In this document: positions 3,577 to 26,234 of the stretch, piece after piece
Layout: the number at the start of each line of letters is the position of its first letter
Position numbering within the stretch: position 1 is the first letter of the stretch
From: an uncultured Planctomycetia bacterium
GTDB taxonomy: Bacteria > Omnitrophota > Gorgyraeia > Duberdicusellales > 4484-171
Assembly: GCA_964455875.1 (NCBI GenBank)
Contig: CAYVYZ010000002.1
Location: forward strand, 655 to 64,654
DNA: 64,000 bases
Reading direction: 5' to 3'
The notes under the pieces: generated by a model
What the model was told of the DNA's origin: nothing
The model's database searches: none
What the model saw: the letters and a program-made list of their open reading frames with translations, nothing else
Translations under genes and position numbers: made by a program

Positions 3577-4488
3577 TCACAACACCTTCATAATACGACT
3601 AGCAATCGCCGCGAAACATATATTTGGGTCGAAAGATAAACTCATCTCCATCTGCCCGGTTGAAATAATCTCTGTTATCTCTGCTTTTGTTTTCACCGGC
3701 AAATCAGATTTGAAAAACATATCTTCTAAATCAACTAATAATTTATCATAATCTGGATGCCTGTTTGGTATTTCATATCTTATTTTACTCCACTCCTTAG
3801 CTCTTATGAGTTTATAGACTTCCTGAGATATTAGTTCTAACTCTTTCAGTTCCATCATGGTAATCTTCTTATCAGGATTAGAAGATAGTCGTTGTAATGT
3901 GTTAATACTTGTCCTAATATCTCCCTTGCTAATATCGGCAATCATGGTTAATATTAAATCTGTTGTCTTAATATCTTCTTTCTCAACGATAAATTTTAAC
4001 CTGTTTATTAACTCATTCTTATCAGGAGCAGTAAATTCAATTAGTGTAAACCTGCTTTGAATTGGTTCAGGAATTTTATGTAAATAATTACAAGTACATA
4101 GGAACCTTCCATTCCTAACGTATTGCTCCATCATGGCTCTTAAGGCAGCGAAAGCGTTAGCACTCATATAGTCAAACTCTTCAATCCAAATAAGTTTTGG
4201 CTTCCCCCCAACACTACTCTTAGAAGTGATAAAATTATAGACTGTTTCTCTAATAGTATCAACTCCTGTGGTGTCGCTACCATTAATCCTGAGCACATCA
4301 ATAGGTTTCAACATATCAATTATAATCTTAGCACATGTGGTTTTTCCTGTCCCAGGAGGCCCGAAAAACAATAAGTTGGGCATCTCCATAGGCTTCTCAA
4401 TAATGGTTTTCAGAGTAACTAAGTCTTTTACTCCAATCACTTCACTAAAATCTTTCGGCCTGTATTTTTCTATTAATGGTAAACTCAT
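3577..4488 (-). CDS. clamp-loader AAA+ ATPase, RFC small-subunit-like (gp44-like)
   Basis: EKYRPKDFSEVIG, the Walker A sequence FFGPPGTGKTT, a DExx Walker B (IWIEEFD) and the SRC-like sensor QSRFTLIEF. Confidence 0.8.
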   Translation of the reverse strand: MSLPLIEKYRPKDFSEVIGVKDLVTLKTIIEKPMEMPNLLFFGPPGTGKTTCAKIIIDMLKPIDVLRINGSDTTGVDTIRETVYNFITSKSSVGGKPKLIWIEEFDYMSANAFAALRAMMEQYVRNGRFLCTCNYLHKIPEPIQSRFTLIEFTAPDKNELINRLKFIVEKEDIKTTDLILTMIADISKGDIRTSINTLQRLSSNPDKKITMMELKELELISQEVYKLIRAKEWSKIRYEIPNRHPDYDKLLVDLEDMFFKSDLPVKTKAEITEIISTGQMEMSLSFDPNICFAAIASRIMKVL

Positions 4489-4546
4489 TTACACACCCTC
4501 ATATAAAATGTGTGGTAACACACTATTTTTTTTCTTCGGCAATTTT

Positions 4547-5269
4547 TTATTCTTTCATTACTATTGGCGCTATTATACAAATAAATTCCATGCTTCCTTC
4601 TTTCTCAATAGATATTAGTGGAACTCCTGCGCCAATCCTGAACTCAACCACCGTATCTAAAGCATTAAACAACGAAACAAACATAGGACCCACCGTTACT
4701 GAACCCGTTCCTTTACTTTTCAGGGGGTCAAAAGGAACTGTGTTAATAAAGAAATCTGATTCTCCTTTAACACCAACCTCGAAACTAAACACATCTTCTT
4801 CTTTCTTAATATCCACGTGGTTGATTTTGAGAACATCTAAATCACTAATGGTTCTCTGTATCTCCCTACTATCAAATATTATATTCGCACTCGTTTCAAT
4901 CTTTGGCATGTCACCACGATATATTATTTCTTTACAAACGGACTCTGACGCAAGAATAACATATATTTGCCTTCTATCATCAAATAATCTGATTATAAAG
5001 TCCTCTACTTTCTCTATTTCTATGATGTCGTTAAAGCTTTTCAAATACTTTATGAAAGAAGGCGTGTTCTTCACAAATATCTCGCCAATAGGTTCATACT
5101 CTACAAAAGCATCTTTTCCAAGGCTAGTCATAGTCATAGCTACGTTTCCTGGGTCTCTCACAGCAGATTTTAAACCTTCATCAGTAAAATTCAGGTTTAT
5201 AATCATTAATGCGCCATTCAAACTAGCTTTTCTCACAAAATCTTTCAATATGTTTGCTTTAACTTTCAT
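4547..5269 (-). CDS. sliding clamp, PCNA-like
   Basis: About 240 aa, immediately upstream of the clamp loader. The N-terminus MKVKANILKDFVRKASLNG...FVEYEPIGEIFVKN...IKYLKSF is PCNA-like. The start was trimmed to the second Met so that it abuts the upstream gene. Confidence 0.55.
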   Translation of the reverse strand: MKVKANILKDFVRKASLNGALMIINLNFTDEGLKSAVRDPGNVAMTMTSLGKDAFVEYEPIGEIFVKNTPSFIKYLKSFNDIIEIEKVEDFIIRLFDDRRQIYVILASESVCKEIIYRGDMPKIETSANIIFDSREIQRTISDLDVLKINHVDIKKEEDVFSFEVGVKGESDFFINTVPFDPLKSKGTGSVTVGPMFVSLFNALDTVVEFRIGAGVPLISIEKEGSMEFICIIAPIVMKE

Positions 5270-5273
5270 TTTA

Positions 5274-5714
5274 TCATAACTCCTTGGTTTTTTCAACTGC
5301 ACCTTTCATAATCTCAGAACTGCTTCTCACCTTCTTACCACCGGTTCCCCACACCATCTTAATACCCAACTCATTACATAAATTTATTTCTGGAACATCT
5401 TTCAATGTTCGTCTCTTATCTCCTCCAAGACAAAACACGTCTGGGTGGAAAACCTCTAGCTCTGTGCAAACAGACATATCTTTTGGGTTTTCATCGTGAA
5501 AACTAATTTTTACATCGTCAACATAACGCAACGCTTTCAAAATTTCTTTTCTGTCATTCTCTGACATAAAAACAAACCCCTTCTTCTTCTTAAGCCAGTT
5601 ATCATTATTTAATATGACTAGTAACGTGTCTCCATAATCTCTGGCTTCTTTTAAAAAATTGATATGTCCGACGTGCAAGGGGTCAAAACCTCCTGATACG
5701 GCTACTGTAACCAC
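5274..5714 (-). CDS. cytidylyl/adenylyltransferase-like nucleotidyltransferase (HldE domain II / TagD family)
   Basis: VAVSGGFDPLHVGHINFLKEA (an HxGH motif) followed by DTLLVILNND. Confidence 0.7.
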   Translation of the reverse strand: MVTVAVSGGFDPLHVGHINFLKEARDYGDTLLVILNNDNWLKKKKGFVFMSENDRKEILKALRYVDDVKISFHDENPKDMSVCTELEVFHPDVFCLGGDKRRTLKDVPEINLCNELGIKMVWGTGGKKVRSSSEIMKGAVEKTKEL

Positions 5715-5733
5715 TTTTAATCACCTTTTTTAC

Positions 5734-6024
5734 TTATTCTGCTTTCTTTTCTTCGGTTTTTACGTTAGGAGTCTGTTCTTCTTTTTTCTCTTCTACTTTC
5801 TTTTCTACCGCTTCCAATGTTCTTGGTTCTGCTGTCTTAATCTCAAGCTTAACCGTTTCGGCTTTTTTCTCGATTTCTTTAAGTTTGGTAGAAATAGGTT
5901 GAATGTTTTTTTCAATCATATTAACCCTTTCATCTATATATTTTGCGTAATTAATTAATTCGTTTATCTTATCTCTTACCTCTTTTTCCCTTAGTTGTGG
6001 CTCAATTTTTTCTTGTTCTACCAT
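5734..6024 (-). CDS. hypothetical coiled-coil protein
   Basis: A 96-aa ORF rich in K/E heptads. Confidence 0.4.
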   Translation of the reverse strand: MVEQEKIEPQLREKEVRDKINELINYAKYIDERVNMIEKNIQPISTKLKEIEKKAETVKLEIKTAEPRTLEAVEKKVEEKKEEQTPNVKTEEKKAE

Positions 6025-6056
6025 TTTCCCACCTTCCTTATTTTATAATCTTCTAA

Positions 6057-6260
6057 CTACCTTACCTTTTCTTTAAATATTATTCTTCCATTAGTTAAAT
6101 CTTTAATAACAAAATATTCGTCGTTTTCCCAATAAAAAGCTATTTTACCGCGTTTTTCCCTATCCAGAAATCTGGAAGACACCTCTCTAAATCCAGGTAA
6201 CCACACACCAACATAATTAATAAAATCTTCTCTACTAGCACACCTTCTTTCAGTTACCAT
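6057..6260 (-). CDS. hypothetical protein
   Basis: A 67-aa ORF in the co-oriented gene string. Confidence 0.35.
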   Translation of the reverse strand: MVTERRCASREDFINYVGVWLPGFREVSSRFLDREKRGKIAFYWENDEYFVIKDLTNGRIIFKEKVR

Positions 6261-6275
6261 TTTAAAAATATGTGG

Positions 6276-6419
6276 TTATTTTTCTAAATAACAAGTATAA
6301 CTACAGTAATCTAACACATACTCTTTGCCATTCTTAATCGCTGTTTTTCCCTTTGGTGGTTTGCTTTTATAAAAAAGTGTTCCACAAACCCTACACACAC
6401 AGTTTGGTTCTCGTTTCAT
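6276..6419 (-). CDS. small zinc-ribbon protein (47 aa)
   Basis: MKREPNCVCRVCG...DYCSYTC. The ATG overlaps the radA stop in an ATGA overlap. The ORF is below the track cutoff, so I translated it by hand. Confidence 0.35.
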   Translation of the reverse strand: MKREPNCVCRVCGTLFYKSKPPKGKTAIKNGKEYVLDYCSYTCYLEK

Positions 6420-7357
6420 TTTACATTCACGAATCCTTCTTTTTTAATAAAGAAATTACACTCATTGCTCGGTAAATTAGGACTATCCACTAGTTTAGCA
6501 TAAATACTTCCTCCTTTTCCAGGCCTCACGTATATTCTGAACGCGCTGTTATGACCAACTATATGACCTCCTACCGGTGTGGTGGGGTCTCCATAAAACT
6601 GAGCTGGATTGGCATGCACTTGATTAGTCACAAGCACAACCAAGTTATATAAATCAGCTATTTTAAGTAATTGGTGCATGTGCTTATTAAGTTTCTGCTG
6701 TCTCTCAGCCAGTGTGCCTCGCCCTACAAACTCTGACCTGAAATGAGAAGTAAGAGAGTCAATCACAAGAATCCTATAATTCTCACCATTCTTTTGCAAC
6801 ATCTTCTCAATCTCTTCCACTAACAGTATCTGGTGGTCAGAGTTATAAGCTCTGCTAACATAAATTCTGTTCATCGCATCATCAAAATCTAAGCCGTTTG
6901 CCTCAGCAAAATCTTTTATTCTGTCTGGTCTGAAGGTATTTTCGGTATCTAAGAAGATTGCCTTATTATCTTTGTTCTCAATTAATGCTCTTACAACAAG
7001 CAAGTGAGCTAACTGGGTTTTACCGGACCCGAACTGTCCATATACTTCGGTTATTACACCAGATTCAAAACCACCTTCCAACATACCGTCGAAATCGGAG
7101 CAGCCTGTTCCGATTTTCCGGATTTTGTCTCTGCGTTTTGCGAACTCTTTGGCTTTTTCAAAACCAAGCTTCAAGTTCTCCCTTGCTTGTTGTATGAGCT
7201 TTCTCGCGACGGATTCACTAATCCCTGCGATTGTGCTAACCTCAACAGGAGTTGTAACTGCTAATGACATCAATGTAGATATACCTGCGCTTTCCAGTTT
7301 TTCAATTGTGGTAGGACCCGCACCTTTTAATATTGATAATTCTGATTTTTTTGTCAT
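6416..7357 (-). CDS. radA: RadA/Rad51-family recombinase (archaeal/eukaryotic type)
   Basis: The N-terminal HhH domain reads GPTTIEKLESAGISTL...GISESVARKL. Walker A is GQFGSGKTQLAHLL, and LVIDSLTSHFR and VVLVTNQV are also present. Confidence 0.85.
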   Translation of the reverse strand: MTKKSELSILKGAGPTTIEKLESAGISTLMSLAVTTPVEVSTIAGISESVARKLIQQARENLKLGFEKAKEFAKRRDKIRKIGTGCSDFDGMLEGGFESGVITEVYGQFGSGKTQLAHLLVVRALIENKDNKAIFLDTENTFRPDRIKDFAEANGLDFDDAMNRIYVSRAYNSDHQILLVEEIEKMLQKNGENYRILVIDSLTSHFRSEFVGRGTLAERQQKLNKHMHQLLKIADLYNLVVLVTNQVHANPAQFYGDPTTPVGGHIVGHNSAFRIYVRPGKGGSIYAKLVDSPNLPSNECNFFIKKEGFVNVK

Positions 7358-7374
7358 TTTAAAAAAATGAATAC

Positions 7375-7420
7375 CCCACCAACAAAGACGTCCTTTGCTG
7401 GTTTTTTATGGGGTAGCGGC
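7375..7420. other. GC-rich extended hairpin, with further hairpins up to position 7500, in a 150-nt intergenic spacer
   Basis: ccccaccaacaaag-acgtc-ctttgctgg folds into a stem, followed by ttttttatgggg that closes an outer stem with the leading cccca. Further stems (gaatg...cattc) follow downstream. Confidence 0.35.
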
Positions 7421-7520
7421 AACATGGCCTTGCAATTTTTCTCCTTGCCATCATGTTGAATGACGCACATGGCATTCGTTCATCTTTCCAACATGATTAT
7501 CATTGATTATTCAATGAATA

Positions 7521-7865
7521 TTAATCTGTTCCTTTACTAATATCTTCAAGTATTTTAAGAGCTTCTTCAATAGTTTTTAATTTAGCGTCGAACATCCGTT
7601 CTTTATCAGACTGTCTTTCTTTAAGATTGGCTACTTTCTTCTCGGCTTTTTCCAACTCCCAGTCTAAATTCCTCTTCTCCCGGTCACATTCATCCTGATA
7701 TGCTTGTTTCTTGTCTTCAATAGAACTTCTTAAAGAGTCAACGGCTTGCTCGGCTTTCCTTATCTCATCAGCAAGTTGGAACTTAGCTGTCATTATATCC
7801 AGCTTCTTTGTAATTAATCTTTCTACAATACTATATCTACTTTGGCTTTCTCCCATAATAATCAC
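7521..7865 (-). CDS. hypothetical coiled-coil protein
   Basis: 114 aa, charged and heptad-rich. Confidence 0.4.
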   Translation of the reverse strand: MIIMGESQSRYSIVERLITKKLDIMTAKFQLADEIRKAEQAVDSLRSSIEDKKQAYQDECDREKRNLDWELEKAEKKVANLKERQSDKERMFDAKLKTIEEALKILEDISKGTD

Positions 7866-7866
7866 C

Positions 7867-8994
7867 TCATTGAATAGGGAAATCTTCTTCTAATAATTTA
7901 TCATACTTCTTATAACAACCATAAAGCTCTTTGCTAAGCCTATCGAATTCTTCTTGATTAAGTGAATATTCGGCAATGTATTTAAGTAAAACATTAAAGC
8001 TCCTATCATATCTCATCAAGGACTTTGGAAACTTAATAATATTTCTATCAACTTCATACTTAATACTTGTCAACGGGTTTTCCCTGAAATAATTAATCGT
8101 GGCTATTACATCCTTATAAGTATCTGCTTTTAAATTCACTATTCTTTCTACGTCAATCACTTTATCAAAACGAGTTGTTAATCTTCCTTCAAACACAAAA
8201 GGAATAAATCTGTTAGTGACTGCTTTTGTGAACATCTGGTCAAAATACTCTTGTGCTTTACCAGTATAATAACTTGGAAGATTATAAAACAACACCAAAC
8301 TTAACTTACTAATATCATATTGTTCTTGGGTTGTGTTCGTCTTTCTACTTCTTTTAGTATAAGTGTTAAAATAGGCGCCTGTTGCTAACAAGAACTCTTG
8401 CATCTGTATCTTCTCATCCTTCTTCAAATTACCAAGCTCGTTAAGAATAATAAGTTTATTCCTTAACACATATTCCAGTTTAGCCATAGTTGCCCCATAC
8501 AAGTTAGCCATAGAGTCAACTAAATGACCAATAATATTCATAACGGAGTCCTTGCCAAAACCAGCGTCTGTAGACACCCTGTAATTAACCCTATCTATAA
8601 ACGCCGCTAAAGCTATTATTTTATAAAGTAAGAAATGTAAAGGCTTGGTGTGTGAAAATTGTGGCATTATATCCACCAACTCTCTAAAACTCATCTTCTT
8701 TTCAGCGGGAATCTTGATAGAAGTGATGCCAATAATAAAATTAAATACGTCGTTCTTATAATCTTTTTCTATTGTTTCGGTAACTTTAAAAGGTAGTTGT
8801 TCAACATGTTCATCTAAAGCGAAGTATTGTTTAATTCCTTTCTCCATAAAGAAACCATAAAATTTTTCTCCATTAATAGTTATACACTTCTTCTTACTTA
8901 CAAGATTTTCATCTGTGAAGATGTCGCTATACAACTGATTATTAAAATAAGTTATACAATCGTTGTGAAACATAAACTCATCTTCTTCTTTCAT
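7867..8994 (-). CDS. hypothetical protein
   Basis: 375 aa. No motif was recognised and there is no Walker A. Confidence 0.45.
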   Translation of the reverse strand: MKEEDEFMFHNDCITYFNNQLYSDIFTDENLVSKKKCITINGEKFYGFFMEKGIKQYFALDEHVEQLPFKVTETIEKDYKNDVFNFIIGITSIKIPAEKKMSFRELVDIMPQFSHTKPLHFLLYKIIALAAFIDRVNYRVSTDAGFGKDSVMNIIGHLVDSMANLYGATMAKLEYVLRNKLIILNELGNLKKDEKIQMQEFLLATGAYFNTYTKRSRKTNTTQEQYDISKLSLVLFYNLPSYYTGKAQEYFDQMFTKAVTNRFIPFVFEGRLTTRFDKVIDVERIVNLKADTYKDVIATINYFRENPLTSIKYEVDRNIIKFPKSLMRYDRSFNVLLKYIAEYSLNQEEFDRLSKELYGCYKKYDKLLEEDFPIQ

Positions 8995-9003
8995 CGTCCC
9001 ACC

Positions 9004-9294
9004 TTAGAATAAATATTCTTCGTTTACACCTTTCTTAAAACTTATCTTGTCTTTTGGTTCTTTTGGTTTTAAAAGTTTTTTAATCTCAGAACCGCTTTTG
9101 TGTTTGGTGAAAGACTTTAAAATAGTGGCTTCCCCTTTCAAATCATATCTTATAAGCATGGTAACCCACAAATAACCATATTTGTCTGGTACAGGAATCT
9201 CTGTTTTTGTCTCTTCTGTTGGTTTCTCAATTGGTTTGTTGTTGAGTTTCTTTGGCTTCACTCCTTTTAACAGTTTTTCGTAAGGATTACTCAT
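9004..9294 (-). CDS. hypothetical protein
   Basis: 96 aa. Confidence 0.35.
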   Translation of the reverse strand: MSNPYEKLLKGVKPKKLNNKPIEKPTEETKTEIPVPDKYGYLWVTMLIRYDLKGEATILKSFTKHKSGSEIKKLLKPKEPKDKISFKKGVNEEYLF

Positions 9295-9295
9295 T

Positions 9296-9859
9296 TTAGC
9301 CTTTTAATAGTTTAAATAGTTCTTTAGCCCTTTCTTTAGTAATACTGTTTTCGTATACTGGTTGTTGAGATGCTTCTACAAATAAGTCTTCGTTTATATT
9401 ATATCCGCTTTTAAGCATCGCTTGTGTGTCTTTAACCAGCTTCATCTCTGTTGGTGTCATAGAAACACCATCACTCTCATAATCTGGTTTTCTTCCTTCA
9501 GATAACTTTTCGGCTTCATATCTCTTTATAAGCCTACCGCTTCTTCCTTCTTCAACGATTTTTCTAATAGCCACTTCAACATCAATATTTCCATTAGTTA
9601 ATTGAATAAGTTGTTTATTCAAGTTCTCTGTTGGAAAGAATATTACTTTCCCAGTGTATGGTGTTGGCATTGGTGTTCTTTCCTTTCCTTCTCTTACTTT
9701 AGCATTCTCCACGAAACCAAACCATAAATACCACTCACCAAATTTTCCTTGCCCAGTCTTCACTGGTGCGGCACAATCAAGTTTTATTTTGACCGGGTCT
9801 CCAAGTAAAGGAATATCTTTCAAATCAAGTATTGGATTAATCTCTTTTTCGTTTGGCAT
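9296..9859 (-). CDS. hypothetical protein, possibly an OB-fold or ssDNA-binding protein
   Basis: 187 aa. GQGKFGEWYLWFGFVEN is the only hint. Confidence 0.35.
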   Translation of the reverse strand: MPNEKEINPILDLKDIPLLGDPVKIKLDCAAPVKTGQGKFGEWYLWFGFVENAKVREGKERTPMPTPYTGKVIFFPTENLNKQLIQLTNGNIDVEVAIRKIVEEGRSGRLIKRYEAEKLSEGRKPDYESDGVSMTPTEMKLVKDTQAMLKSGYNINEDLFVEASQQPVYENSITKERAKELFKLLKG

Positions 9860-10157
9860 TTTCTTTTTCCTCCTTTATTTTATCCACACAATCTTGACAC
9901 AATCCTACGAATGCGATAACTCCCTTGTCTGTTTTAGATGCTTCTCTTAAATATAGTGGTTCTGATGTTATATCAACTTCTTTCTTACAACCAAAACAAA
10001 CACCATCTTCTTTCAGCTTTTTATTAACCGCATCCCATAGAAATCCCATCTCTCCTAAACTCTGTTCTACGGCTTTTTCATCGATTTTATCTATTTGAGT
10101 AACTTCCTTATTATCACTATCCTTTAAAAAATCATCCAGTTCTTTATCAGAAACCAT
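9837..10157 (-). CDS. hypothetical zinc-binding protein
   Basis: CFGC...CQDC pairs. Confidence 0.4.
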   Translation of the reverse strand: MVSDKELDDFLKDSDNKEVTQIDKIDEKAVEQSLGEMGFLWDAVNKKLKEDGVCFGCKKEVDITSEPLYLREASKTDKGVIAFVGLCQDCVDKIKEEKENAKRKRD

Positions 10158-10207
10158 TTTTTCTCACCTATTATAATGTCTTTTTATAACATCATTAAGG
10201 AATATTG

Positions 10208-10248
10208 GGGTCCCTCTTGAAAAAAACCCGGAGGTGGTAGAGGGACCC
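10208..10248. terminator. GC-rich hairpin (10-bp stem) abutting the glutaredoxin stop codon
   Basis: gggtccctct...agagggaccc, followed by ttttgg on the + strand and with a U-run inside the loop on the - strand. It is the strongest GC hairpin in this AT-rich block. Confidence 0.35.
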
Positions 10249-10499
10249 TAGGTTTTGGAGGGGCAATGAGTGTTATTAAACAAACTATCGTAAGTTTCTT
10301 GGTCGAAACCAATTATTTTCTTCTTACCTATAAAAAGAACAGGTATTTTCTTCTCACCTACTTTCTCTATAAAATCTTGTGGGTTATCCTGAATATTTAT
10401 AAAACTATAAAAAATTTTTTTCTCGTCTAAATATTTTTTTGCTAACAAACAAGCAGGACAATATTCTGCGCCATAAAGAGTAACTTTTTCAACATTCAT
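10248..10499 (-). CDS. glutaredoxin / NrdH-like redoxin
   Basis: VTLYGAEYCPACLLAKKYLDEKKI...IPVLFIGKKKIIGF. The start was trimmed to an internal Met that abuts the upstream gene. Confidence 0.7.
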   Translation of the reverse strand: MNVEKVTLYGAEYCPACLLAKKYLDEKKIFYSFINIQDNPQDFIEKVGEKKIPVLFIGKKKIIGFDQETYDSLFNNTHCPSKT

Positions 10500-10500
10500 T

Positions 10501-11277
10501 TTAATATTTTTTGAACTGGTTTTCAAACACATCGTAAGGAACAGCGTGTGAAATTCCTTGATTGTCATTATAAGAAATAACTATTCCAACAAACCTTAGT
10601 TCGTTTTTTCGCTTCACAAAAACAGGTCCTCCACTATAACCTCCTCTTACCACCTCGTCTAAACACACGCGAATTTCTCCGGTATCCTTATTATGTATTA
10701 TCGCGGTAATGTTGCTTTTTTTTATTACCCTGAATCTACCACCGGGGTAACCACCAATATAACACTCTTCGCCTATAATAAGGTTTTTATAAGATATTGG
10801 GGGTGTTCTGTATGCTTTGTACTTATCTTTTTTTGTGCTTATAATTGCGTAATCCTTTTCTAAGTCAAGTCTCTCAAGTTTTCCTTCAAGTGTTTCTCCA
10901 TACATATCCACAACAACCTTTTCATGTGATTGAACATCAGATAACAATGGGTGTTGTGGCTTAAGCAGGTGACCAGCAGTTATGTAATAACTTCTATTAC
11001 CCCCATCTTTAAAATTGTATAACGAACCAGATACCTTTCTATCGAAAAACACACCCCTGGCTTTTCCTGTTAAACGAACAGTAAATTTATATACATTCTC
11101 AAAAGCACTATTCCAACGTCTTAATCTATCGTTTTCGTCACGACTAACTTCTTGAAATTCTTGGTCTTGTTTTAAATAATTATCAAGAGTTTGTGTGTTA
11201 GCACCGTTTTCTGGCATATACGATGTTGACAAACCAATAATCGCGCAACCTATTAAAAACTTTTTTAACCTATTCAT
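10501..11277 (-). CDS. secreted trypsin-like (S1) serine protease, lipoprotein
   Basis: A signal peptide with a lipobox (MNRLKKFLIGCAIIG). TAGHLL is the His region and GGYSGGPVF is the GDSGGP-like Ser region. Confidence 0.65.
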   Translation of the reverse strand: MNRLKKFLIGCAIIGLSTSYMPENGANTQTLDNYLKQDQEFQEVSRDENDRLRRWNSAFENVYKFTVRLTGKARGVFFDRKVSGSLYNFKDGGNRSYYITAGHLLKPQHPLLSDVQSHEKVVVDMYGETLEGKLERLDLEKDYAIISTKKDKYKAYRTPPISYKNLIIGEECYIGGYPGGRFRVIKKSNITAIIHNKDTGEIRVCLDEVVRGGYSGGPVFVKRKNELRFVGIVISYNDNQGISHAVPYDVFENQFKKY

Positions 11278-11292
11278 TTGACCCTATAAATA

Positions 11293-18815: not shown

Positions 18816-19127
18816 TCAGTCCCCCTTAATAACCTTTTTCCAATTACGGACAGGTTTTTTATTTTCTAACATCAGCCTTCTTTCGGTATTAGCCACTATA
18901 TTTTCATATTCCTCCTCAGAATAATTAATAACATTCTCCCCACAGTTGCCGCAATAAACATCATCTCCAAATTCGCCACTCTCACCGTCGTGATAATCTA
19001 TTTCACCGTAATCCACAACCTCACCTTCTTTATCAATATAAACTTCTTGTGTTCCGTAAGAAGTAACATCCTGTGTGGTTGTAAAGTTTTCTGCTTCTCC
19101 ACACTCCTCACAATAATACGGCATCAT
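18816..19127 (-). CDS. NWK-tail family protein (member 4) with an N-terminal zinc ribbon and an acidic middle
   Basis: CEECG...CGNCG, ending in ...VRNWKKVIKGD. Confidence 0.45.
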   Translation of the reverse strand: MMPYYCEECGEAENFTTTQDVTSYGTQEVYIDKEGEVVDYGEIDYHDGESGEFGDDVYCGNCGENVINYSEEEYENIVANTERRLMLENKKPVRNWKKVIKGD

Positions 19128-19920
19128 TACCACCTCCAAAAATAGAGCCTTCCACAACAGGTTCTTTTTCTAAATCGTATGATGTTTTCCTAATTTTAAC
19201 ATTTATAATATCATTAGCAGGAGCTTCTGTATTGCCTATATAAGTCTTAACATAATCTTTTCCTTTAATATAATTAACTATATTACTGACTATTTTCCCA
19301 GCGAGTTCATTATTTACTGGGGCACAAGCTTTCTCTCCACAGGCTAATTCAGTTACCTTTCCGTGTGTAAGTGATTTCTCATATTCTTCAACTTCCTTTT
19401 TTTCTCGGCAATCAATAAGATAGTGTCGCATATTGAACATTCCAATCCTACCATCAACCCAGATAATGGGATAATCTTTTAACTTATCAAACAACATTTT
19501 CCTTGCTTCAAAGGAATCAAAGAAACAACAATATATCGTGTCCGGTAAAGGAATGACTTCTGTTTCTTCATTTATTTCCTCGTTAATAGTTATAATGTTT
19601 GTTAATCCTGCTTCATTTTTTAAAATCTCAGCCATCGCCTCAACTTTAGGCATACCAATTTGTTGAAAATTGTATGCCTGTGGCGAAATGTTCTCACTAC
19701 TGACTTTATCCCTATCTATTAATTCAATATTTTTGAACCCTGTCTTTGCTAATATCCTTGCGACGTGGGAACCAACACTTCCAACACCGAAAACTTTAAT
19801 AGTGTATTGATTAATCTTATCAGGTATTAGTTTTGCCTGCCTGCTTAAATCAAGCTCATTTACCTCTTCTTCTTTTTCTTCTTCTTGCTTTTCTCCTTCT
19901 TTTTCGTTTTTTTCCTCCAT
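19108..19920 (-). CDS. E1-like adenylyltransferase (ThiF/MoeB/UbaA family)
   Basis: IKVFGVGSVGSHVARILAKTGFKNIELIDRDKVSSENISPQ is a Rossmann fold with the DxDxV..SNL.RQ-like element. A Cys pair, ACGEKAC, lies downstream. The poly-Glu N-terminus overlaps the upstream gene. Confidence 0.65.
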   Translation of the reverse strand: MEEKNEKEGEKQEEEKEEEVNELDLSRQAKLIPDKINQYTIKVFGVGSVGSHVARILAKTGFKNIELIDRDKVSSENISPQAYNFQQIGMPKVEAMAEILKNEAGLTNIITINEEINEETEVIPLPDTIYCCFFDSFEARKMLFDKLKDYPIIWVDGRIGMFNMRHYLIDCREKKEVEEYEKSLTHGKVTELACGEKACAPVNNELAGKIVSNIVNYIKGKDYVKTYIGNTEAPANDIINVKIRKTSYDLEKEPVVEGSIFGGGNDAVLL

Positions 19921-21458
19921 TTTTTCCCCTCCTTTTTAGTTTTACTCGTATCTGTCCTTGCTATAGATTTTGCGGAAAAATTATTTTTTTCTTCTGGTAA
20001 CCCATTATCATTAACTCCTGTTAAATCCATTAAGGTTTGTTCTTGGTATTCATCAATAATCCTATCCACTATTTTAGCAATATGAACTCCGAATACTTCA
20101 AGGCTATGCCAAGTTGGGTCAAGCATAAGACTTCCTAAAATGTGGTTTTCATTATCATAAACCGAAGCAACCTCACAATCTGGCGCCGCCTCGCTCCAAA
20201 CAACTTTTAAGTCCCTGTTAATTTCTAATTGATTAATAATGGTATCAACTAATTCGGGCTCATCATACACCACTATTTTATCCCCCTCCTTGTTTTGTTC
20301 AATAAATCCTCTTTTTGGTTGTTCCGTATTAACTTCCTGAATTAATTGTTGTAAGTTTTTATCACCGTAATCCCCGTTTTCTTCTTCTATTTTCTCTAAA
20401 TCACACCACTCCTTTAATAGGAGTTTATTATAATTAATGAATAATTGGAGGAGTTTCTTTCTAAATTTATTAAAACTTTTCGGCGCAGGCTGTAATTTAA
20501 ACACGGTTCTCGCACCATCCTTAAAAGTTAATTCTGTTGGGTTTGGCCTAACAACATCTCCAAGGAAATTATTAGGACGAATAGCGTTCTTTAATATTTG
20601 TTTGAAATCTTGCCCTGTTTTAACCACACAACCGCCGTGTTTAAACTCCATACTTACCTGCTCGTTCTCAGCAGGAGAGAATTCAAAACCGTAGCTGGTT
20701 TTTATAAGGTTATTATCTACATAGAGCCGTTGGTCTTTTCTTTCCTCTTCAACATTCCCAAAAAGTTTTTTAAGGGCCTCAACATCGCTTTCCAAAATCA
20801 CTTTCTCACTCCTATTATAATTATAGTTATAATTATAGTTATTGCCTCCGTGATAATAGGTGTGAGTATAAGGGAGAGCTTTACCGTAGTCAAACACCCC
20901 CCGAGAAACCGGTCTCTCAACAACACATTTTTTCTTTATTGCCTCACATATCCTTGCTAACTCTTTATCTTCTGGGGAACACTCATAAAATATGTTTATT
21001 CTTTCGTTTAGGATTGTAACTCTTATTGGGTTACGAATATCAATTCTTACCTCTTTCTTCATCTCTCCATTATCCCAAGCAGTTTGTAAGAAGATAAAGT
21101 AAGGACGCTTTGCGTCGGCATCCATAAAAGTATCAAAGGTTTCATCTTCATCGGTAGAAGAACAACTTGGGCTACCCCCTGGGTGACGGTGCCAATAAAA
21201 GTTTATTTTACCCAATTCTTTCGTTGGAACTTCCTGTATAATATTCTTCCACATCTCTCCTGTGAAATGAACCGTTGCTCCGGTAACATATTGTTTGGGA
21301 TAATAAAGCTTATCAACATAAAAATATTTATTTCCGTCAACGGTTCTAATTCTGACGGTGCCAACAGCCCCTATCTCTGTGTCTAAATGTTCGGTAAACC
21401 ACTTTATTTGCCTATGGACATTATAGGCTAACATTACATTTGCCTTAAACTCTGACAT
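19860..21458 (-). CDS. JAMM/MPN+ metalloprotease domain fused to a ~360-aa domain of unknown function
   Basis: TEIGAVGTV...YWHRHPGGSPSCSSTDED matches E...HxHx7Sx2D. An NYNYNYNYN linker follows, and the C-terminus is a poly-Lys tail. Confidence 0.65.
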   Translation of the reverse strand: MSEFKANVMLAYNVHRQIKWFTEHLDTEIGAVGTVRIRTVDGNKYFYVDKLYYPKQYVTGATVHFTGEMWKNIIQEVPTKELGKINFYWHRHPGGSPSCSSTDEDETFDTFMDADAKRPYFIFLQTAWDNGEMKKEVRIDIRNPIRVTILNERINIFYECSPEDKELARICEAIKKKCVVERPVSRGVFDYGKALPYTHTYYHGGNNYNYNYNYNRSEKVILESDVEALKKLFGNVEEERKDQRLYVDNNLIKTSYGFEFSPAENEQVSMEFKHGGCVVKTGQDFKQILKNAIRPNNFLGDVVRPNPTELTFKDGARTVFKLQPAPKSFNKFRKKLLQLFINYNKLLLKEWCDLEKIEEENGDYGDKNLQQLIQEVNTEQPKRGFIEQNKEGDKIVVYDEPELVDTIINQLEINRDLKVVWSEAAPDCEVASVYDNENHILGSLMLDPTWHSLEVFGVHIAKIVDRIIDEYQEQTLMDLTGVNDNGLPEEKNNFSAKSIARTDTSKTKKEGKKWRKKTKKKEKSKKKKKKKR

Positions 21459-21477
21459 TTTTTTCCCTCCGAGTGTT

Positions 21478-23049
21478 TTAAAACACTTTCATTCCTTTAA
21501 ATTTCTTAATATTAATGTTATAATCATCCGCTTTCATAAGCTTTCTTTGTTCGCCTGTTTTAATCCTATCTTTATCATTAATCATTATTCTGTTTCCTTT
21601 CTCATCCCAAATCGGATAACCGTGTTGTAACCTGTTATCATAAAAATCCCATATCTTAACATAAGCGCCTTCATTTCTATATGTTTTAATCCAAAACCAT
21701 AATAAGGTGGCTAAATCAACAAACTTATTAAAGGATAAACATTCATAAATCTTATTCCTCCCATCACCACTACCAAAGCAAGGAGTGCCACCATGGGAGT
21801 CAGCATGTGGGTGGGGATGTCCATCAATATCGGTTTCTCCCTTAACTTTGAAACCATCGGGGGTTATGACAATTTCTATCCAACCCAAGTAACAAATTCT
21901 CTTACCAAGCTTCTTCCCCATATCGCTCCTTTTGAAATTTGGTATTGTTATGGTAGCAGGCTTAAATTTAATACATATACCGTCGTATTGTAAATCAATT
22001 TCATCAACAAACGGTAATTTTTTCACCTTATTAACCTCATTAAATATGGTTTTGCCAGAGGTATTAATAGTATTGGATATAAATATTTTCTCCTGCTCTA
22101 AACGATTTAACCTATCAAATAACAGCCTAATATTATTTTCGTTACTTGAAATATCTCTTGTTATCCTTTTTTTATCCTGTTTTATTTCTTCTAACTTCTC
22201 CCTTGCTCTCTTTAAGAACCCAGAAATAAAAATCTTTTTTTGTAAGGTAGTAATATTGGTTTTGACAGGTTTAAGAGATTTTAAGACGGCAAACAAATCT
22301 TTTAATGGTTTTGATATTTCTGTTTGAAGGGGAAGAATTTTTCTTATTAAGAAAGGATTATAATATAGTCTTATCAGGTTTCTTTCTTTAAAATATCTTC
22401 CTATGAGAATATTGTTTCCTATCTTAATATCAATTATTTTTTCTCCTTCAAAAGGACTAATGAAGGGAGCTTCATAAACAACTTTAAATTCTTCTTTGTT
22501 AGGTATATCAGTTACATCCCCATATTTATTATACAACAAATCGTTCATCCTTGTATAGAATCCTGGTGGAACTTCCTTTTTAATTCTACCATCAACCCCG
22601 GTATCAAAGACAAGGGTAATCTTTTTATTAATAGTAGCATTTCTTTTAAGGTTAAAAATAGAAGTTACTACCTCAATACCAAGCTCCTTGAACTTTTTAT
22701 CTAAAAGCTTTAATATGAGGGGGTTTCCATCAAGTCCATTAAATTTCTCTTTATAATCAAACATATTTTTAAAGACGGTTTTAGAAACATCTTCGGGCCT
22801 CAGGCTCTTCATAGTTTTTACCTTTTTAATCAACCTATCAATTAATTTAATGGCTTCTCTTCCCTCATAATTAATTTCTTTATCATTCATCCTAATTTTT
22901 CCAAGTAATTCTTTGCCTTTTGTAAACTGAAAGGTTTCATTATCAAGCCATTTTTCCTTGCCTTTTTTTCCTAACTTATTCACCACAATCCTTAAAATAT
23001 TTTCTATTAAATAAGGGTTATCATCCTTAAATTTTTTCACTTTACTCAT
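21478..23049 (-). CDS. hypothetical large protein
   Basis: 523 aa. The only notable element is DGHPHPHADSHGGTPCFGSGDG. Confidence 0.45.
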   Translation of the reverse strand: MSKVKKFKDDNPYLIENILRIVVNKLGKKGKEKWLDNETFQFTKGKELLGKIRMNDKEINYEGREAIKLIDRLIKKVKTMKSLRPEDVSKTVFKNMFDYKEKFNGLDGNPLILKLLDKKFKELGIEVVTSIFNLKRNATINKKITLVFDTGVDGRIKKEVPPGFYTRMNDLLYNKYGDVTDIPNKEEFKVVYEAPFISPFEGEKIIDIKIGNNILIGRYFKERNLIRLYYNPFLIRKILPLQTEISKPLKDLFAVLKSLKPVKTNITTLQKKIFISGFLKRAREKLEEIKQDKKRITRDISSNENNIRLLFDRLNRLEQEKIFISNTINTSGKTIFNEVNKVKKLPFVDEIDLQYDGICIKFKPATITIPNFKRSDMGKKLGKRICYLGWIEIVITPDGFKVKGETDIDGHPHPHADSHGGTPCFGSGDGRNKIYECLSFNKFVDLATLLWFWIKTYRNEGAYVKIWDFYDNRLQHGYPIWDEKGNRIMINDKDRIKTGEQRKLMKADDYNINIKKFKGMKVF

Positions 23050-23117
23050 AATATCCCCTCCTTCTTTTTTTATAGGAGTATTTGAACATAAAAAAAAAAT
23101 AAAAAAGAGTTTTCGGC

Positions 23118-23495
23118 TTAAGCTGACTTAATCTCGGGTGAGATTATGTAAGTTTCGCCGTTAACAACCTCCGAAGAAAGTCTTACCGTTTCTCCTGTTG
23201 ATTTTGCGGTCACTGATTCCTTGCTGTCGTCAAATGTGTAACCTGATTGCTCAATAAGTTCCTCAACAGTAGCTCCTTCTGGCAACAAACAGGTTTCAAC
23301 GCCATTTACACCGATTCTTCCTATAGACGCTTCAATAGCGCCTTCTATTGGCCTACTCCTTCTCCTGCTGGTTGTTGTTCCAGAACCTTGTGCGTTATAG
23401 GCTCTGGTTATTGCTGCCTTTTGTCCGGGCAACAAGTCGTCAAAATCCTCGCCATACATTCTGTTGGCAAGGGCGTTCTTTGACATCCTTGGCAT
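23118..23495 (-). CDS. hypothetical protein with a possible C-terminal beta-grasp (ThiS/MoaD-like) segment
   Basis: ...EGATVEELIEQSGYTFDD...GETVRLSSEVVNGETYIISPEIKSA. There is no terminal Gly-Gly. The gene is locally GC-rich. Confidence 0.3.
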   Translation of the reverse strand: MPRMSKNALANRMYGEDFDDLLPGQKAAITRAYNAQGSGTTTSRRRSRPIEGAIEASIGRIGVNGVETCLLPEGATVEELIEQSGYTFDDSKESVTAKSTGETVRLSSEVVNGETYIISPEIKSA

Positions 23496-24276: not shown

Positions 24277-24510
24277 CTACACCTTAATCCTCTTTTTCCA
24301 ATTCTTTATTGGTGGCTCGTGCCTTCTTGCTATCATTTCGCCTGTAATAACATAACCGGCGTCAATATTATAGTAACGGTTAGTGGTAGTTGGTATTATA
24401 CCTGTAATAATAACTTTCTTTCCCGCAAGATTTTCGGAAATGTTTTTCTCTCTTAACTTTTTTTTGTTCTTTATTAATATCACTTCATCATATATTCTTA
24501 TATTACTCAT
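24277..24510 (-). CDS. NWK-tail family small protein (member 5)
   Basis: Ends in ...PPIKNWKKRIKV. Confidence 0.45.
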   Translation of the reverse strand: MSNIRIYDEVILIKNKKKLREKNISENLAGKKVIITGIIPTTTNRYYNIDAGYVITGEMIARRHEPPIKNWKKRIKV

Positions 24511-24538
24511 CTTCCTAAACTCCTCCTATTTTTTTTCA

Positions 24539-25162
24539 TTATAAGCCTTCCATTTTAAGTATTCTGCTTTTTTGACCTGAATGTTTATGAAATCCTTGTG
24601 GTATCTTAACAAGGTTACCATACTTTCTTCCCTCGTTCAACTCTGTTTGTTTTGGGAAAACCTCGTGATAACCAAGCCCAACCCTATTTAACCGTGATTT
24701 AACAAGCTTCTGCCCAAACGAAGCTTGAACAGGATTTTTAAAGAATATCCATATATGATAGCCACGCCTACCACTAAATTCAAGTATTCTGGGAAAATCT
24801 TCAAAAAGGTCAAAGATGATGTTGGCTTCTGCCTTGACCCGGCGTAATTCTGCCTCTTCTTCTTTGAACCCACATTTTGGACAAACCCATTTCCAATCCT
24901 TTTCATCAATATAAACTCCTTTATCACGGCACTTCTTACATTTCTTCTTAATATCAATATCAATACAAGCCCACTTAATAGTGTTGTCGTGATTAAGGCA
25001 GTATAGTCCATAAGTTTCTTTTCCTGACATATGATTTTCAATATCCTCAAGAGTTATTGGCCTTCTTTCTGGATAATAATAGCCACCGGGCTGTTGTTTA
25101 GCAAAAACATCTTTCCTATGAACAAAAATGTTAAATATTTCTTCTGCGGATAGCTTTATCAT
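24539..25162 (-). CDS. archaeo-eukaryotic primase-type primase-polymerase (PrimPol-like) with an inserted zinc ribbon
   Basis: CIDIDIKK (DxD), CKKCRD...CPKCG, GRRGYHIWIFF (sGxGyH) and LVKIP. Confidence 0.6.
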   Translation of the reverse strand: MIKLSAEEIFNIFVHRKDVFAKQQPGGYYYPERRPITLEDIENHMSGKETYGLYCLNHDNTIKWACIDIDIKKKCKKCRDKGVYIDEKDWKWVCPKCGFKEEEAELRRVKAEANIIFDLFEDFPRILEFSGRRGYHIWIFFKNPVQASFGQKLVKSRLNRVGLGYHEVFPKQTELNEGRKYGNLVKIPQGFHKHSGQKSRILKMEGL

Positions 25163-25401
25163 CTGTTTAACACCTCTCTCCAATTAATTTTGGCAGGAAT
25201 AAAATGCTTTGGGTCTTCAACAAAATCCCGTATCCAACCACCTTTTAAATCTCCTTCTATTTCTGGAAAATAATATAAAAAACCGTCGTGTTGAACCGTA
25301 TAAATTTTATCCTTAATAAAAAATTTGGAGGCTATACTATTTCCTGGATTAACACATTTCAGTTTTGTGCCTTCTTTATACTTGTGTTTTGGTTTCCACA
25401 T
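25159..25401 (-). CDS. NWK-tail family small protein (member 6)
   Basis: Ends in ...AKINWREVLNR. Confidence 0.45.
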   Translation of the reverse strand: MWKPKHKYKEGTKLKCVNPGNSIASKFFIKDKIYTVQHDGFLYYFPEIEGDLKGGWIRDFVEDPKHFIPAKINWREVLNR

Positions 25402-25469
25402 CTTTTAAACCCCATCAATTTTTTATAATATTTCTCTCCTATGTTTTTTTTGATTATATTCCTTTTTTA

Positions 25470-26234
25470 TCAATTCTTAAAAATGTTTGTTGCCCCCTCT
25501 TTTAGTAAATCTTCATAAGGGATAATTCTTCTTAACCGTGGTTGAAATGGTTTTTTATCAGGTGTTAAAAAACAATATTCTATTTCCGCATACGGTTTTT
25601 TATTAAGGAATTTTAAATAATTAAAAAATTCAACCAATTTTATTGAATTAGCCGAACACTTTACTTTAATACCGTTTCTACTTAACAAAAAAGCTCCTTT
25701 ACTCTTCCCTTTAATATGGGTTATTATGGGGAGTTTTTCTTCAATAAGCCTTTTACACTTATACATTACTTTACTATTCATATCTTTTAATACTAATCCT
25801 TCAGTATTGTTTTTAAGGACAAAATTCCACCCCTCCTCAAAAGTCTTAAATCTTTTAGGATAAGATAAGTGTTTAAACCCCTTTATTATTTCCTCTATTT
25901 TCATTCTTTTAGTCATAACATCTGCTTCCCTAAAATTTTTTCCTTCAAATTCTAAAATATCAAAGATATAATATTTTGTCCTCCCCCAATTAATTTTTTT
26001 ATTTAATAATAAAACATTCCCCCAAGGGATAGCGATTTCTCCTATAAAAAACCCATTAAGATTTTTTAATTCTTTTAATATGTGAGGAAACTTATGATTT
26101 TGATTAATCCACCTCTTATCAGATAACAACACTCCTTTATTGTAATAAACACACCCGCCATCAACTTTTTCCTCAATAAGGAAATTTTTTAATTTCTTTG
26201 CTTCCTCAACACCAATTTGTAATATTCCTGACAT
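25470..26234 (-). CDS. ATP-dependent DNA ligase, minimal type
   Basis: EEKVDGG (the KxDG motif), FIGEIA, YIFDIL, EGLVLKD and a lysine-rich motif V. Confidence 0.7.
   Translation of the reverse strand: MSGILQIGVEEAKKLKNFLIEEKVDGGCVYYNKGVLLSDKRWINQNHKFPHILKELKNLNGFFIGEIAIPWGNVLLLNKKINWGRTKYYIFDILEFEGKNFREADVMTKRMKIEEIIKGFKHLSYPKRFKTFEEGWNFVLKNNTEGLVLKDMNSKVMYKCKRLIEEKLPIITHIKGKSKGAFLLSRNGIKVKCSANSIKLVEFFNYLKFLNKKPYAEIEYCFLTPDKKPFQPRLRRIIPYEDLLKEGATNIFKN

Follow-up and report, generated by a model that had tools for sequence, protein, structure and literature searches.

The 64,000-nucleotide stretch of DNA analyzed here (hereafter the window), which makes up ~98% of an unclosed 65-kb metagenomic contig (65,191 bp), is best explained as a probably partial genome of an uncultured archaeal tailed virus, whose host most likely belongs to the Woesearchaeota/Nanoarchaeota lineage of DPANN archaea. 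We regard the archaeal nature of the virus as highly probable; a Woesearchaeota-like DPANN host is favoured, with less confidence. This assignment is based on replication and recombination proteins of the archaeal type (RadA, a PCNA-like sliding clamp and an RFC-like clamp loader), on predicted promoters composed of a TFB recognition element (BRE) and a TATA box, and on the closest relatives of RadA, which are found in Woesearchaeota and Nanoarchaeota. An archaeal tailed virus was the first of two alternatives offered by an earlier examination of the letters and open reading frames (ORFs) of this DNA (the sequence-only reading), and the three lines of evidence speak for it. The same reading considered the host not assignable from sequence, which appears too pessimistic in view of the ~20-fold enrichment of the BRE/TATA motif and the nearest relatives of RadA.

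Replication and recombination genes

All replication genes of the window are located on the minus strand (Table 1). The recombinase contains the Pfam domains Rad51 (255 bits, residues 75-310) and HHH_5 (31 bits, residues 10-60), with a Walker A motif, GQFGSGKT, at residue 107. It scores above the NCBIfam equivalog cut-offs of NF003301 (407.3 versus 259 bits) and TIGR02236 (394.9 versus 361.15 bits), and the Dmc1, Rad51, RadB and RecA models each remain below their own cut-offs (RecA, 49 bits). The RadA of P. furiosus in PDB matches the window protein with 329 bits, while the identity to any phage RecA or UvsX does not exceed 30%.

A single RFC-like gene was found. Its product shows similarity to the Pfam AAA domain (64 bits), the RFC1-5 lid (RCF1-5-like_lid, 31 bits) and the clamp loaders of phrog_168 (198 bits). 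The best PDB matches are archaeal RFC small subunits (133/131 bits), as against eukaryotic RFC2-5 (107-127 bits), T4 gp44 (78 bits) and bacterial gamma/tau (44 bits). The best NCBIfam family is the RFC small subunit (NF001679), at 177 bits, below the equivalog cut-off of 303 and with residues 5-211 only aligned; the conserved C-terminal collar was not recognized and the SRC motif reads SRF. No RFC-large or gp62-like second subunit was recognized among the window proteins scanned, and the missing loader partner may be host-encoded or unrecognizable.

The PCNA-like ORF, whose true start is probably the ATG at 5269, had no Pfam or PHROG match when used alone. A profile built from five sequences (the window ORF and four syntenic homologues; 233 positions) was compared with PDB, and all 60 matches listed were PCNA (best E = 3e-10, positions 16-231 of 233 aligned with residues 23-255). 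The protein reaches 31.9 bits with the NCBIfam sliding clamp model, below the cut-off of 207, and judging from the profile it is a very divergent member of the PCNA family. A grouping of RadA, PCNA and RFC with UvsX, gp45 and gp44, which the sequence-only reading had named as the outcome contradicting it, was checked and not found; the proteins are of the archaeal/eukaryotic type.

No canonical PCNA-interacting peptide (PIP box) occurs at the termini of any window protein. Two other terminal peptides were observed. An acidic peptide, EFSF, is present in eight copies at the termini of four ORFs (27081-27698, 30551-31240, 32127-32504 and 32470-32727) and could be an alternative motif by which the clamp or a partner is bound. 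Nine small proteins (77-139 amino acids, aa) share the C-terminal motif NW[KR]xx[ILV], e.g. ITNWKEIIKK, possibly a common peptide for docking or targeting; no significant similarity to any Pfam family was seen in the eight of them that were scanned.

A candidate replicative helicase, absent from the sequence-only reading, is encoded by the gene adjoining radA. The 375-aa protein has no match in Pfam, PHROGs or PADLOC and is conserved across the related viruses as strongly as RadA and the terminase large subunit (TerL). Its AlphaFold2 model, obtained from a 40-sequence alignment, has a predicted local distance difference test score (pLDDT) of 89 and a predicted template modelling score (pTM) of 0.86. 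In a Foldseek comparison of this model with PDB, MCM proteins rank first (SsoMCM, E = 1e-8), with MoxR and BrxL nearly equal to them in score. The MCM helicases of archaea and eukaryotes, and the MCM-like proteins that mobile elements encode (BrxL, for example), are among the closest known systems. An MCM-type AAA+ fold is present, as are a pre-sensor-1 beta-hairpin and all catalytic motifs, with invariant residues in the AAA+ order: Walker A K148, Walker B N185/E186, the beta-hairpin, sensor 1 N238, the arginine R262 of an NRF motif, and sensor 2 R328/R331. The sequence-level features of MCM proteins (a Pfam MCM match, an N-terminal zinc finger and OB domain, a C-terminal winged helix) were not found. 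Instead of the 459-707 residues of the full-length MCM chains matched in PDB, the protein has 375, with an N-terminal beta-domain at residues 36-92. We consider it a candidate miniature MCM-like ATPase (mini-MCM) and putative replicative helicase. Another conserved protein of the module (187 aa) is 41-51% identical in the related loci L003-L006. Its assignment as a single-stranded DNA-binding protein was rejected as a guess: the family profile gave no PDB match and a single-sequence AlphaFold2 model had a pLDDT of 45.6.

The primase domain belongs to the archaeo-eukaryotic primases (AEP). It was recognized by Pfam AEP-TOTE (82.5 bits, cut-off 27), phrog_5362 DNA primase (97 bits) and PADLOC PrimPol (110 bits), and the motifs DxD (DIDI) and sxH (YHIW) can be read from its sequence. 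The score with NCBIfam PrimPol_Msp (143 bits) is below the cut-off of 200 because the AEP domain alone is present. The ATP-dependent ligase is weakly recognized as a single sequence (Pfam, 27.4 bits versus a cut-off of 26.2; no match in a phmmer search of PDB). A profile of 37 sequences matched the LigD ligase domain (E = 1e-22), the minimal ligase 4d05, and archaeal and human ligases, with DNA ligases at E values of 1e-22 to 1e-12 and RNA ligases at only about 3e-3. Residues K23/G26 (KxDG, motif I), E66 (motif III), E145-G146-K150 (EGLVxK, motif IV) and K159/K161 (motif V) are invariant.

The nuclease shows similarity to PDDEXK_1 (87.4 bits), Dna2 (30.2 bits) and PADLOC Cas4, and its score with TIGR00372 cas4 (62.8 bits) is slightly under the cut-off of 65. 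Four cysteines are arranged in a 1+3 pattern, C23 and CRWCSYTDIC close to the C-terminus; because there is no CRISPR context, the protein is named Cas4-like only. The adenosylcobalamin-dependent (class II) ribonucleotide reductase (RNR) exceeds the cut-off of TIGR02505 (392.3 versus 340.05 bits), contains the Pfam domains RNR_Alpha and RNR-II_ins_dom, and is 69-70% identical in L003-L006.

The sequence-only reading had proposed a RadA/Rad51 protein with an N-terminal helix-hairpin-helix domain rather than UvsX/RecA, a PCNA-like clamp with an RFC-like loader, an AEP PrimPol, a minimal ATP-dependent ligase and a Cas4-like Fe-S nuclease, and all of these identifications hold. The class II RNR and the HK97-type head module, which it placed within 3577-26234, are present as well, but they lie outside that interval, at 1316-3298 and 36545-54779, respectively.

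Head module and viral nature of the window

The set of hallmark genes of Caudoviricetes (those for TerL, portal, HK97-type major capsid protein (MCP) and prohead protease) was found in the window (Table 1). A 9-bp hairpin followed by a T-run, resembling an attenuator or terminator, is located at 54817-54838, directly 3′ of the MCP gene. The window is thus part of the genome of a head-tailed (Caudoviricetes-type) virus. The contig is probably a partial genome, since syntenic relatives on contigs of 87-115 kb encode a family B DNA polymerase (PolB) and the window does not. The DNA is AT-rich (GC content 0.31-0.40, overall 0.35) and ~88% coding, with many small ORFan genes. An Rfam scan of the whole window gave no match, and when the region was compared by megablast with 50,697 phage and virus records on deposit, no similarity at the nucleotide level emerged.

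It is very improbable that the window represents no free virus genome and is instead a Nanoarchaeota chromosomal region or provirus, a plasmid, or a chimera of a cellular replication island with a phage head module. Such an origin would fit an unclosed metagenomic contig in which tail genes were not recognized and whose RadA passes cellular equivalog cut-offs. However, ribosomal, tRNA and housekeeping genes are absent from the densely coding window, and no integrase was identified among the proteins scanned against family libraries. The replication module and TerL share contigs in independent assemblies of 83-115 kb, cellular RadA genes lie in a wholly different context, and relatives of TerL are absent from GTDB genomes. 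Moreover, several JGI, ENA and Logan samples yielded, in independent assemblies, the very same TerL and RadA proteins, an observation that speaks against a chimera.

Predicted promoters

Nine exact copies of a BRE+TATA-like motif, CGAAANNTTTAWA (CGAAA-NN-TTTAWA(TA)), were identified in the window, compared with 0.43 ± 0.70 in shuffled sequences; none of 100 shuffles reached nine. These BRE/TATA-like promoter sites are labelled CGAAACATTTAAATAG. All nine are co-oriented with the downstream genes, the lone plus-strand copy lying at the start of the plus-strand module, and in six cases the next ORF starts 19-54 nt downstream. Nine more copies, eight of them on the coding strand, were found in 109 kb of related viral loci, which yielded the extended consensus AAWCGAAACATTTAWATAG. 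For six of the copies in these loci an ORF begins 36-55 nt downstream, usually behind a Shine-Dalgarno (SD) sequence.

The published BRE of haloarchaea is CGAAA (PMC2151090), and in M. jannaschii MRCCGAAAAG is followed by TWTATATA (PMC2602779). The motif CGAAANNTTTAWA matches an archaeal BRE plus TATA box, and its ~20-fold enriched copies are predicted promoters. Sigma-70 promoters are not enriched in the window (79 versus 72.9 and 67 versus 71.7 expected), nor is the Bacteroidota promoter consensus (2 versus 3.2 expected). A Bacteroides phage region contained no copy of CGAAANNTTTAWA, a weak control with 0.05 copies expected.

Related viruses

The virus belongs to a large uncultured family. 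The order mini-MCM, RadA, PCNA, RFC, RNR recurs on four IMG/VR contigs (43-109 kb), with 34-75% protein identity. ENA contigs of 45-115 kb carrying RadA homologues are virus-like in content, with genes for Cas4-like nucleases, RFC, homing endonucleases and intein-containing NrdD as well as 7-deazaguanine genes; in L095 (9344-12565) a 7-deazaguanine DNA-modification set (QueC/D/E, FolE) was observed, which is absent from the window. Homologues of RadA, TerL and mini-MCM each occur on contigs sized 83,332, 111,430 and 115,514, and this equality of contig sizes means that they are physically linked. No literature describing this virus family was found, in a search of incomplete coverage that is no proof of novelty.

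In L003, L005 and the P0012 contigs, PolB is encoded 2-3 kb or a few kb beyond RNR or NrdD. This position is held in the window by a cupin gene and by an intein-containing methyltransferase gene running off the contig end. The methyltransferase ORF was recognized by Pfam Intein_splicing (80.6 bits) and N6_N4_Mtase (28.7 bits). In the alignment to its homologue the ~157-aa mini-intein sits directly after the residues DPF, and the homologue in L006, which has no intein, aligns on both flanks of the insert. Inteins are frequent in this virus family, being present in RNR (L005, L006), RadA (L006, 582 aa) and many TerL homologues (Pfam intein/LAGLIDADG). A conserved protein of ~500 aa, not found in the window, is encoded between RNR and PolB (L003 15174-16667, L004 14224-15795, L005 16037-17578); a Walker-A-like GDSGGGKS and an LSDGQ motif, spotted by eye, suggest an ABC-type ATPase.

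Host assignment

The named close homologues of RadA are all from Woesearchaeota/Nanoarchaeota and are 56-58% identical to the window protein. One of these genes was verified to lie in a cellular context, together with genes for RPA, FEN1, tRNA endonuclease and Trm5. Among the best 80 of at least 599 confirmed RadA loci of GTDB (50-57% identity), 52 carry a Woese-, Nano- or Pacearchaeota label and 21 the label "Methanosarcinales". The latter label was rejected as a host signal: these 21 proteins are 69-93% identical to, and interleaved with, those labelled Woesearchaeota/Nanoarchaeota. In a neighbour-joining tree rooted with halovirus RadA, 81 RadA proteins form a clade apart from the cellular ones in 98 of 100 bootstraps; a virus-like genomic context was checked for a subset of this clade.

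Further indications come from the head module and from base composition. The only match to the MCP among the 50,697 deposited phage and virus records is a protein of an Altiarchaeum virus. The best RadA matches among isolates are those of haloarchaeal tailed viruses (30-32.5% identity). The GC content of the window (0.35) may be compared with the median of 0.37 for Nanoarchaeota loci.

Several observations weigh against this assignment or limit it. The GTDB RadA sample was picked by patterns derived from an alignment of viral and Woesearchaeota sequences and is hence biased in their direction. A search of 185,579 GTDB species genomes with a 22-sequence TerL alignment revealed no TerL relatives, and therefore no evidence from provirus or from co-binning in metagenome-assembled genomes. 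A tRNA scan of the whole window detected no tRNA gene that would link it to a host. The motif CGAAANNTTTAWA was first spotted by eye in the very window in which it was counted, and the loci used for the second test are related to the window and hence only partly independent. Neither the cellular Nanoarchaeota loci (4 matches in 487 kb) nor the Altiarchaeum virus showed an enrichment of the motif, which is therefore specific to the virus family and not a general DPANN signature. No DNA polymerase was found in the window, also by tblastn with the PolB proteins of the relatives, and no tail-family match was obtained among the scanned ORFs of 54877-63345, the contig being probably incomplete. The helicase role of the MCM-like protein is inferred, like every step of the mechanism outlined below, which follows the established roles of the respective families. 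Finally, among isolates TerL is most similar to its counterparts in Bacteroides phages (DAC; 27% identity), and one mini-MCM homologue is located on a 5,785-bp contig (L097; JAWWDI010000101.1) of an assembly labelled Oceanihabitans sediminis (GCA_033719995.1), a member of Flavobacteriaceae and the only bacterial label seen.

The last two observations would fit a bacteriophage, e.g. of Bacteroidota, that had horizontally captured archaeal-type RadA, PCNA, RFC, MCM and AEP modules. So would the strong SD sites, the lipobox protease and the ADP-heptose (RfaE-type) genes of the window, as well as some hairpin-plus-T terminators (21 versus 9.5 expected in 3001-23000). We nevertheless consider a bacteriophage improbable. 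Sigma-70 and Bacteroidota promoters occur at chance level, whereas the archaeal motif is strongly enriched and co-oriented with genes. RadA is 50-58% identical to cellular Nanoarchaeota proteins, far above its identity to any phage RecA/UvsX, and the MCP matches an archaeal virus only. The same mini-MCM homologue is also encoded on a 26-kb metagenome scaffold, and the flavobacterial label, given the short contig, probably reflects a binning artefact. Both SD sites and lipoboxes occur in archaea too, and a lipobox has no diagnostic value for bacteria.

A less likely alternative that still carries some weight is a tailed virus of archaea that replicates in the same way but has a non-DPANN host from the same sediments (a methanogen, an anaerobic methanotrophic archaeon (ANME), or a member of Thermoplasmatota or Asgard), with RadA acquired horizontally from a Nanoarchaeota-like source. 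The lineage call rests on one gene, RadA, and the RadA of P. furiosus still reaches 329 bits. Furthermore, the consensus CGAAA-NN-TTTAWATA has been described for methanogens and haloarchaea (PMC2602779, PMC2151090) and shows no enrichment in the sampled Nanoarchaeota loci. However, no non-DPANN RadA is nearer: all named top matches and the best 80 of the GTDB loci belong to the Nanoarchaeota group. The viral RadA clade of 81 members points to a long association and not to a recent transfer, and the only MCP relative is that of a virus infecting Altiarchaeum, likewise a small archaeon not yet in culture. A virus of the Woesearchaeota/Nanoarchaeota lineage is thus the reading that we prefer.

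Proposed replication strategy

For such a virus, the functions predicted above can be arranged in the following scheme. Host RNA polymerase, together with TATA-binding protein and transcription factor B (TBP/TFB), would transcribe the viral genome from the BRE/TATA promoters. The MCM-like ATPase would unwind the DNA and the AEP would prime synthesis, while RFC would load the viral PCNA, tethering a family B polymerase that may be viral, encoded past the contig end as in the relatives, or recruited from the host. The ligase and the Cas4/Dna2-like nuclease may process Okazaki fragments or DNA ends (lagging-strand maturation). By analogy with T4 UvsX, RadA could drive recombination-dependent replication and the formation of concatemers, which would feed terminase-mediated packaging into HK97-type heads. 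The class II RNR would supply deoxynucleoside triphosphates, fitting an anoxic sediment. RadA itself may have been captured once from a Nanoarchaeota-like lineage and then diversified with the virus family.

Comparison with known viruses

Archaeal tailed viruses with near-complete replisomes are already known, so the combination of genes found here is not unusual: the same set is known from magroviruses and from large haloviruses (PMC5434244; bioRxiv 10.1101/2025.02.15.638363). Magroviruses are tailed viruses of Marine Group II Euryarchaeota, whose double-stranded DNA genomes measure 65-100 kb and encode a sliding clamp, RFC, AEP, MCM, a RadA-like ATPase, ATP-dependent ligase(s), nucleases and PolB (Philosof et al. 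2017, PMC5434244). Like the window, they combine an HK97-type head module with a near-complete archaeal-type replisome, and inteins and homing endonucleases are common in both. Their replication proteins are described as very divergent, whereas the RadA of the window is full and highly conserved (57% identity to cellular proteins); the MCM of the window, unlike theirs, is a 375-aa miniature, and the probable host lineage differs. Searches with RadA, MCP and TerL returned no magrovirus from the collection of deposited viruses, in which the presence of magrovirus records was not confirmed.

The haloarchaeal tailed viruses HCTV-1, HCTV-5 and HVTV-1 (~102-105 kb) and DHTV-1/-2 encode RadA, PCNA, RFC, primase, PolB and ligase (bioRxiv 10.1101/2025.02.15.638363). 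It is the RadA of such large haloviruses that best matches the window protein among cultured viruses (94% coverage). They differ in host and environment, and their MCPs have no detectable similarity to that of the window; the sole TerL link to a haloarchaeal virus, PhiCh1, is weak (23-24% identity, E = 1e-11 to 3e-12). Halovirus genomes are GC-rich, in contrast to the 35% GC of the window.

The functional logic of the T4-type replisome is shared: a viral clamp, loader and recombinase for recombination-dependent replication, and packaging of concatemers by a large terminase. The proteins themselves are of other types (gp45, gp44/62 and UvsX in T4), as the scores given above for the RFC small subunit versus gp44 (133 versus 78 bits) and for RecA (49 bits) indicate; no gp62-like or RFC-large subunit was recognized among the proteins scanned. 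The MCP relative mentioned above belongs to Altivir_8_HURL (BK059162; Rahlff et al. 2021, PMC8324899) and is 22.7% identical over 82% of the protein (E = 2e-6). This virus infects an uncultured small archaeon and also encodes MCM, portal, protease and terminase, but its circular genome is only 22.6 kb, RadA, PCNA and RFC are not annotated in it, and its MCM is full-length (778 aa).

Less expected than the replisome as such are the probable DPANN host, a RadA of near-cellular conservation in a viral clade that is large and monophyletic, and the miniature MCM-like protein. In a bolder reading, which we consider less likely than not, the window would stand for a large family, hitherto undescribed, of tailed viruses (65-115 kb) of ultra-small DPANN archaea (Woesearchaeales and relatives), bringing a near self-sufficient replisome into hosts of reduced genome size. 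To it would belong a mini-MCM not recognized before and among the smallest MCM-type helicases, a PCNA whose divergence goes so far that it uses a non-PIP docking peptide (the recurrent C-terminal NWKxxL or EFSF), and a ubiquitin-like E1/JAMM module encoded by the virus. DPANN viruses are barely characterized, and their hosts are episymbionts with reduced genomes. A virus family equipped with a helicase, primase, clamp, loader, ligase, recombinase and RNR of its own would show how replication proceeds in a minimal cell, and the replisome pattern of magroviruses and haloviruses would reach a further superphylum of archaea. For classification, host prediction and biochemistry, concrete handles are offered by the promoter consensus of the family, the monophyly of viral RadA and the mini-MCM. 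Since the phenomenon as such has already been published, the gain is incremental and not conceptual.

Other genes and sequence features

Table 1. Predicted genes and sequence features of the window, with intein-related loci of related contigs
Feature	Position	Strand	Basis or remark
Leftward gene block	1-49845	minus	
N6/N4 DNA methyltransferase with mini-intein (about 78-548)	1-896	minus	ORF runs off window start
Class II (adenosylcobalamin) ribonucleoside-triphosphate reductase	1316-3298	minus	NCBIfam TIGR02505
Clamp-loader ATPase, RFC small-subunit type, single subunit	3577-4488	minus	Pfam AAA and RFC lid
Divergent PCNA sliding clamp	4547-5302	minus	family profile versus PDB
RadA recombinase with N-terminal helix-hairpin-helix	6416-7357	minus	Pfam, NCBIfam, PDB
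Mini-MCM-like AAA+ ATPase, 375 aa	7867-8994	minus	candidate replicative helicase
Conserved protein of replication module, 187 aa	9296-9859	minus	
Trypsin-like serine protease, lipobox-like N-terminal signal FLIGC (LIGC)	10501-11277	minus	Pfam Trypsin_2, 45.4 bits
Zinc-ribbon mini-protein, 64 aa, two CPxCG motifs	13630-13824	minus	motif scan
Nine NW[KR]xx[ILV] ORFs	16612-16884, 17152-17457, 17565-17984, 18816-19157, 24277-24510, 25159-25401, 28593-28874, 28850-29215, 29415-29711	minus	
Cas4/Dna2-like PD-(D/E)XK nuclease, 4-Cys Fe-S type pattern	17878-18780	minus	PDDEXK_1
ThiF/E1-like adenylyltransferase	19108-19920	minus	Pfam ThiF, 91.4 bits
532-aa protein, N-terminal JAMM-like motif HRHPGGSPSCSSTD (HxHx7Sx2D)	19860-21458	minus	motif read from sequence
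AEP primase domain, PrimPol type, inserted zinc ribbon	24539-25183	minus	Pfam AEP-TOTE
Minimal ATP-dependent DNA ligase, 254 aa	25470-26234	minus	family profile versus PDB
Seven iterons, six at ~28-nt spacing, consensus GCGCTACTACTAWAKAGTGATAACA	35059-35290		repeat family D2 from repeat search
ClpP-like prohead protease	36545-37168	minus	Pfam CLP_protease, 108 bits
Terminase large subunit TerL	37165-38820	minus	Pfam Terminase_6C, 22.9 bits; phrog_38 TerL, 196 bits
Exact copies of CGAAANNTTTAWA	36506-36518, 12086, 14901, 30489, 32782, 34965, 35045, 49847	minus	
Exact copy of CGAAANNTTTAWA	49918	plus	
Rightward gene block	49950-64000	plus	
Portal	49950-51431	plus	Pfam Portal_Mu, 36.7 bits; phrog_9232 portal
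Probable scaffold	52605-53750	plus	position and composition
HK97-type major capsid protein	53784-54779	plus	Pfam Phage_capsid_2, 33.6 bits; phrog_544 major head protein
Intein-related loci in relatives	L005 13015-16023; L006 4484-6229, 11012-14947		

The strong SD sites and the lipobox protease noted by the sequence-only reading were both recovered: a 5-nt SD core precedes 44 of 94 genes, compared with 7.7% at control positions, and the lipobox is read directly from the sequence of a Trypsin_2 protein. As for the several CPxCG zinc-ribbon mini-proteins that it listed, one is strict, the 64-aa protein with two copies of the motif, whose Pfam zinc-ribbon matches are weak and all under the cut-off; the others contain plain CxxC pairs. 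Two more small proteins (14583-14846 and 31662-31994) carry SWIM-like CxC...CxH zinc fingers, spotted by eye.

Four genes at 19108-23495 encode the ThiF/E1-like protein, the 532-aa protein with the JAMM-like motif, a 523-aa protein and a beta-grasp-looking protein of 125 aa that has no C-terminal GG. This cluster may be a virus-encoded ubiquitin-like modification module, of which only the E1 member has database support; it aligns only to the E1 part of the E1-E2 profiles of Cap2 from cyclic oligonucleotide-based antiphage signalling systems (CBASS; PADLOC). The JAMM domain found no support in Pfam, PADLOC or PDB, and a pattern scan of IMG/VR gave no relatives, so the assignment is a motif-level lead only. 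The 125-aa protein, like the mini-proteins with the NWK motif, had no significant Pfam match. A 265-aa protein (13835-14632) shows a weak similarity to the transglutaminase core (19 bits, under the cut-off) after a coiled-coil segment and is a possible cell-wall or lysis enzyme.

A large sugar-modification island occupies 39013-48847, with further parts at 5274-5714 and 35434-36480, and the genes for TerL and the prohead protease are embedded beside it. It encodes several glycosyltransferases, a fused methyltransferase/aminotransferase-like protein, a UDP-glucose/GDP-mannose-dehydrogenase-like protein and, as identified by eye, a probable NAD-dependent sugar epimerase/dehydratase. Both halves of an ADP-heptose pathway are present, RfaE domain I at 40037-41020 and domain II at 5274-5714.

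The region 32740-35430 is poor in ORFs. Besides two BRE/TATA-like sites it contains degenerate short repeats in a GC-rich block (33090-33660), and it had no Rfam match. Together with the iterons, of which a further copy is located at 32801-32828, it is a candidate origin or operator/regulatory array.

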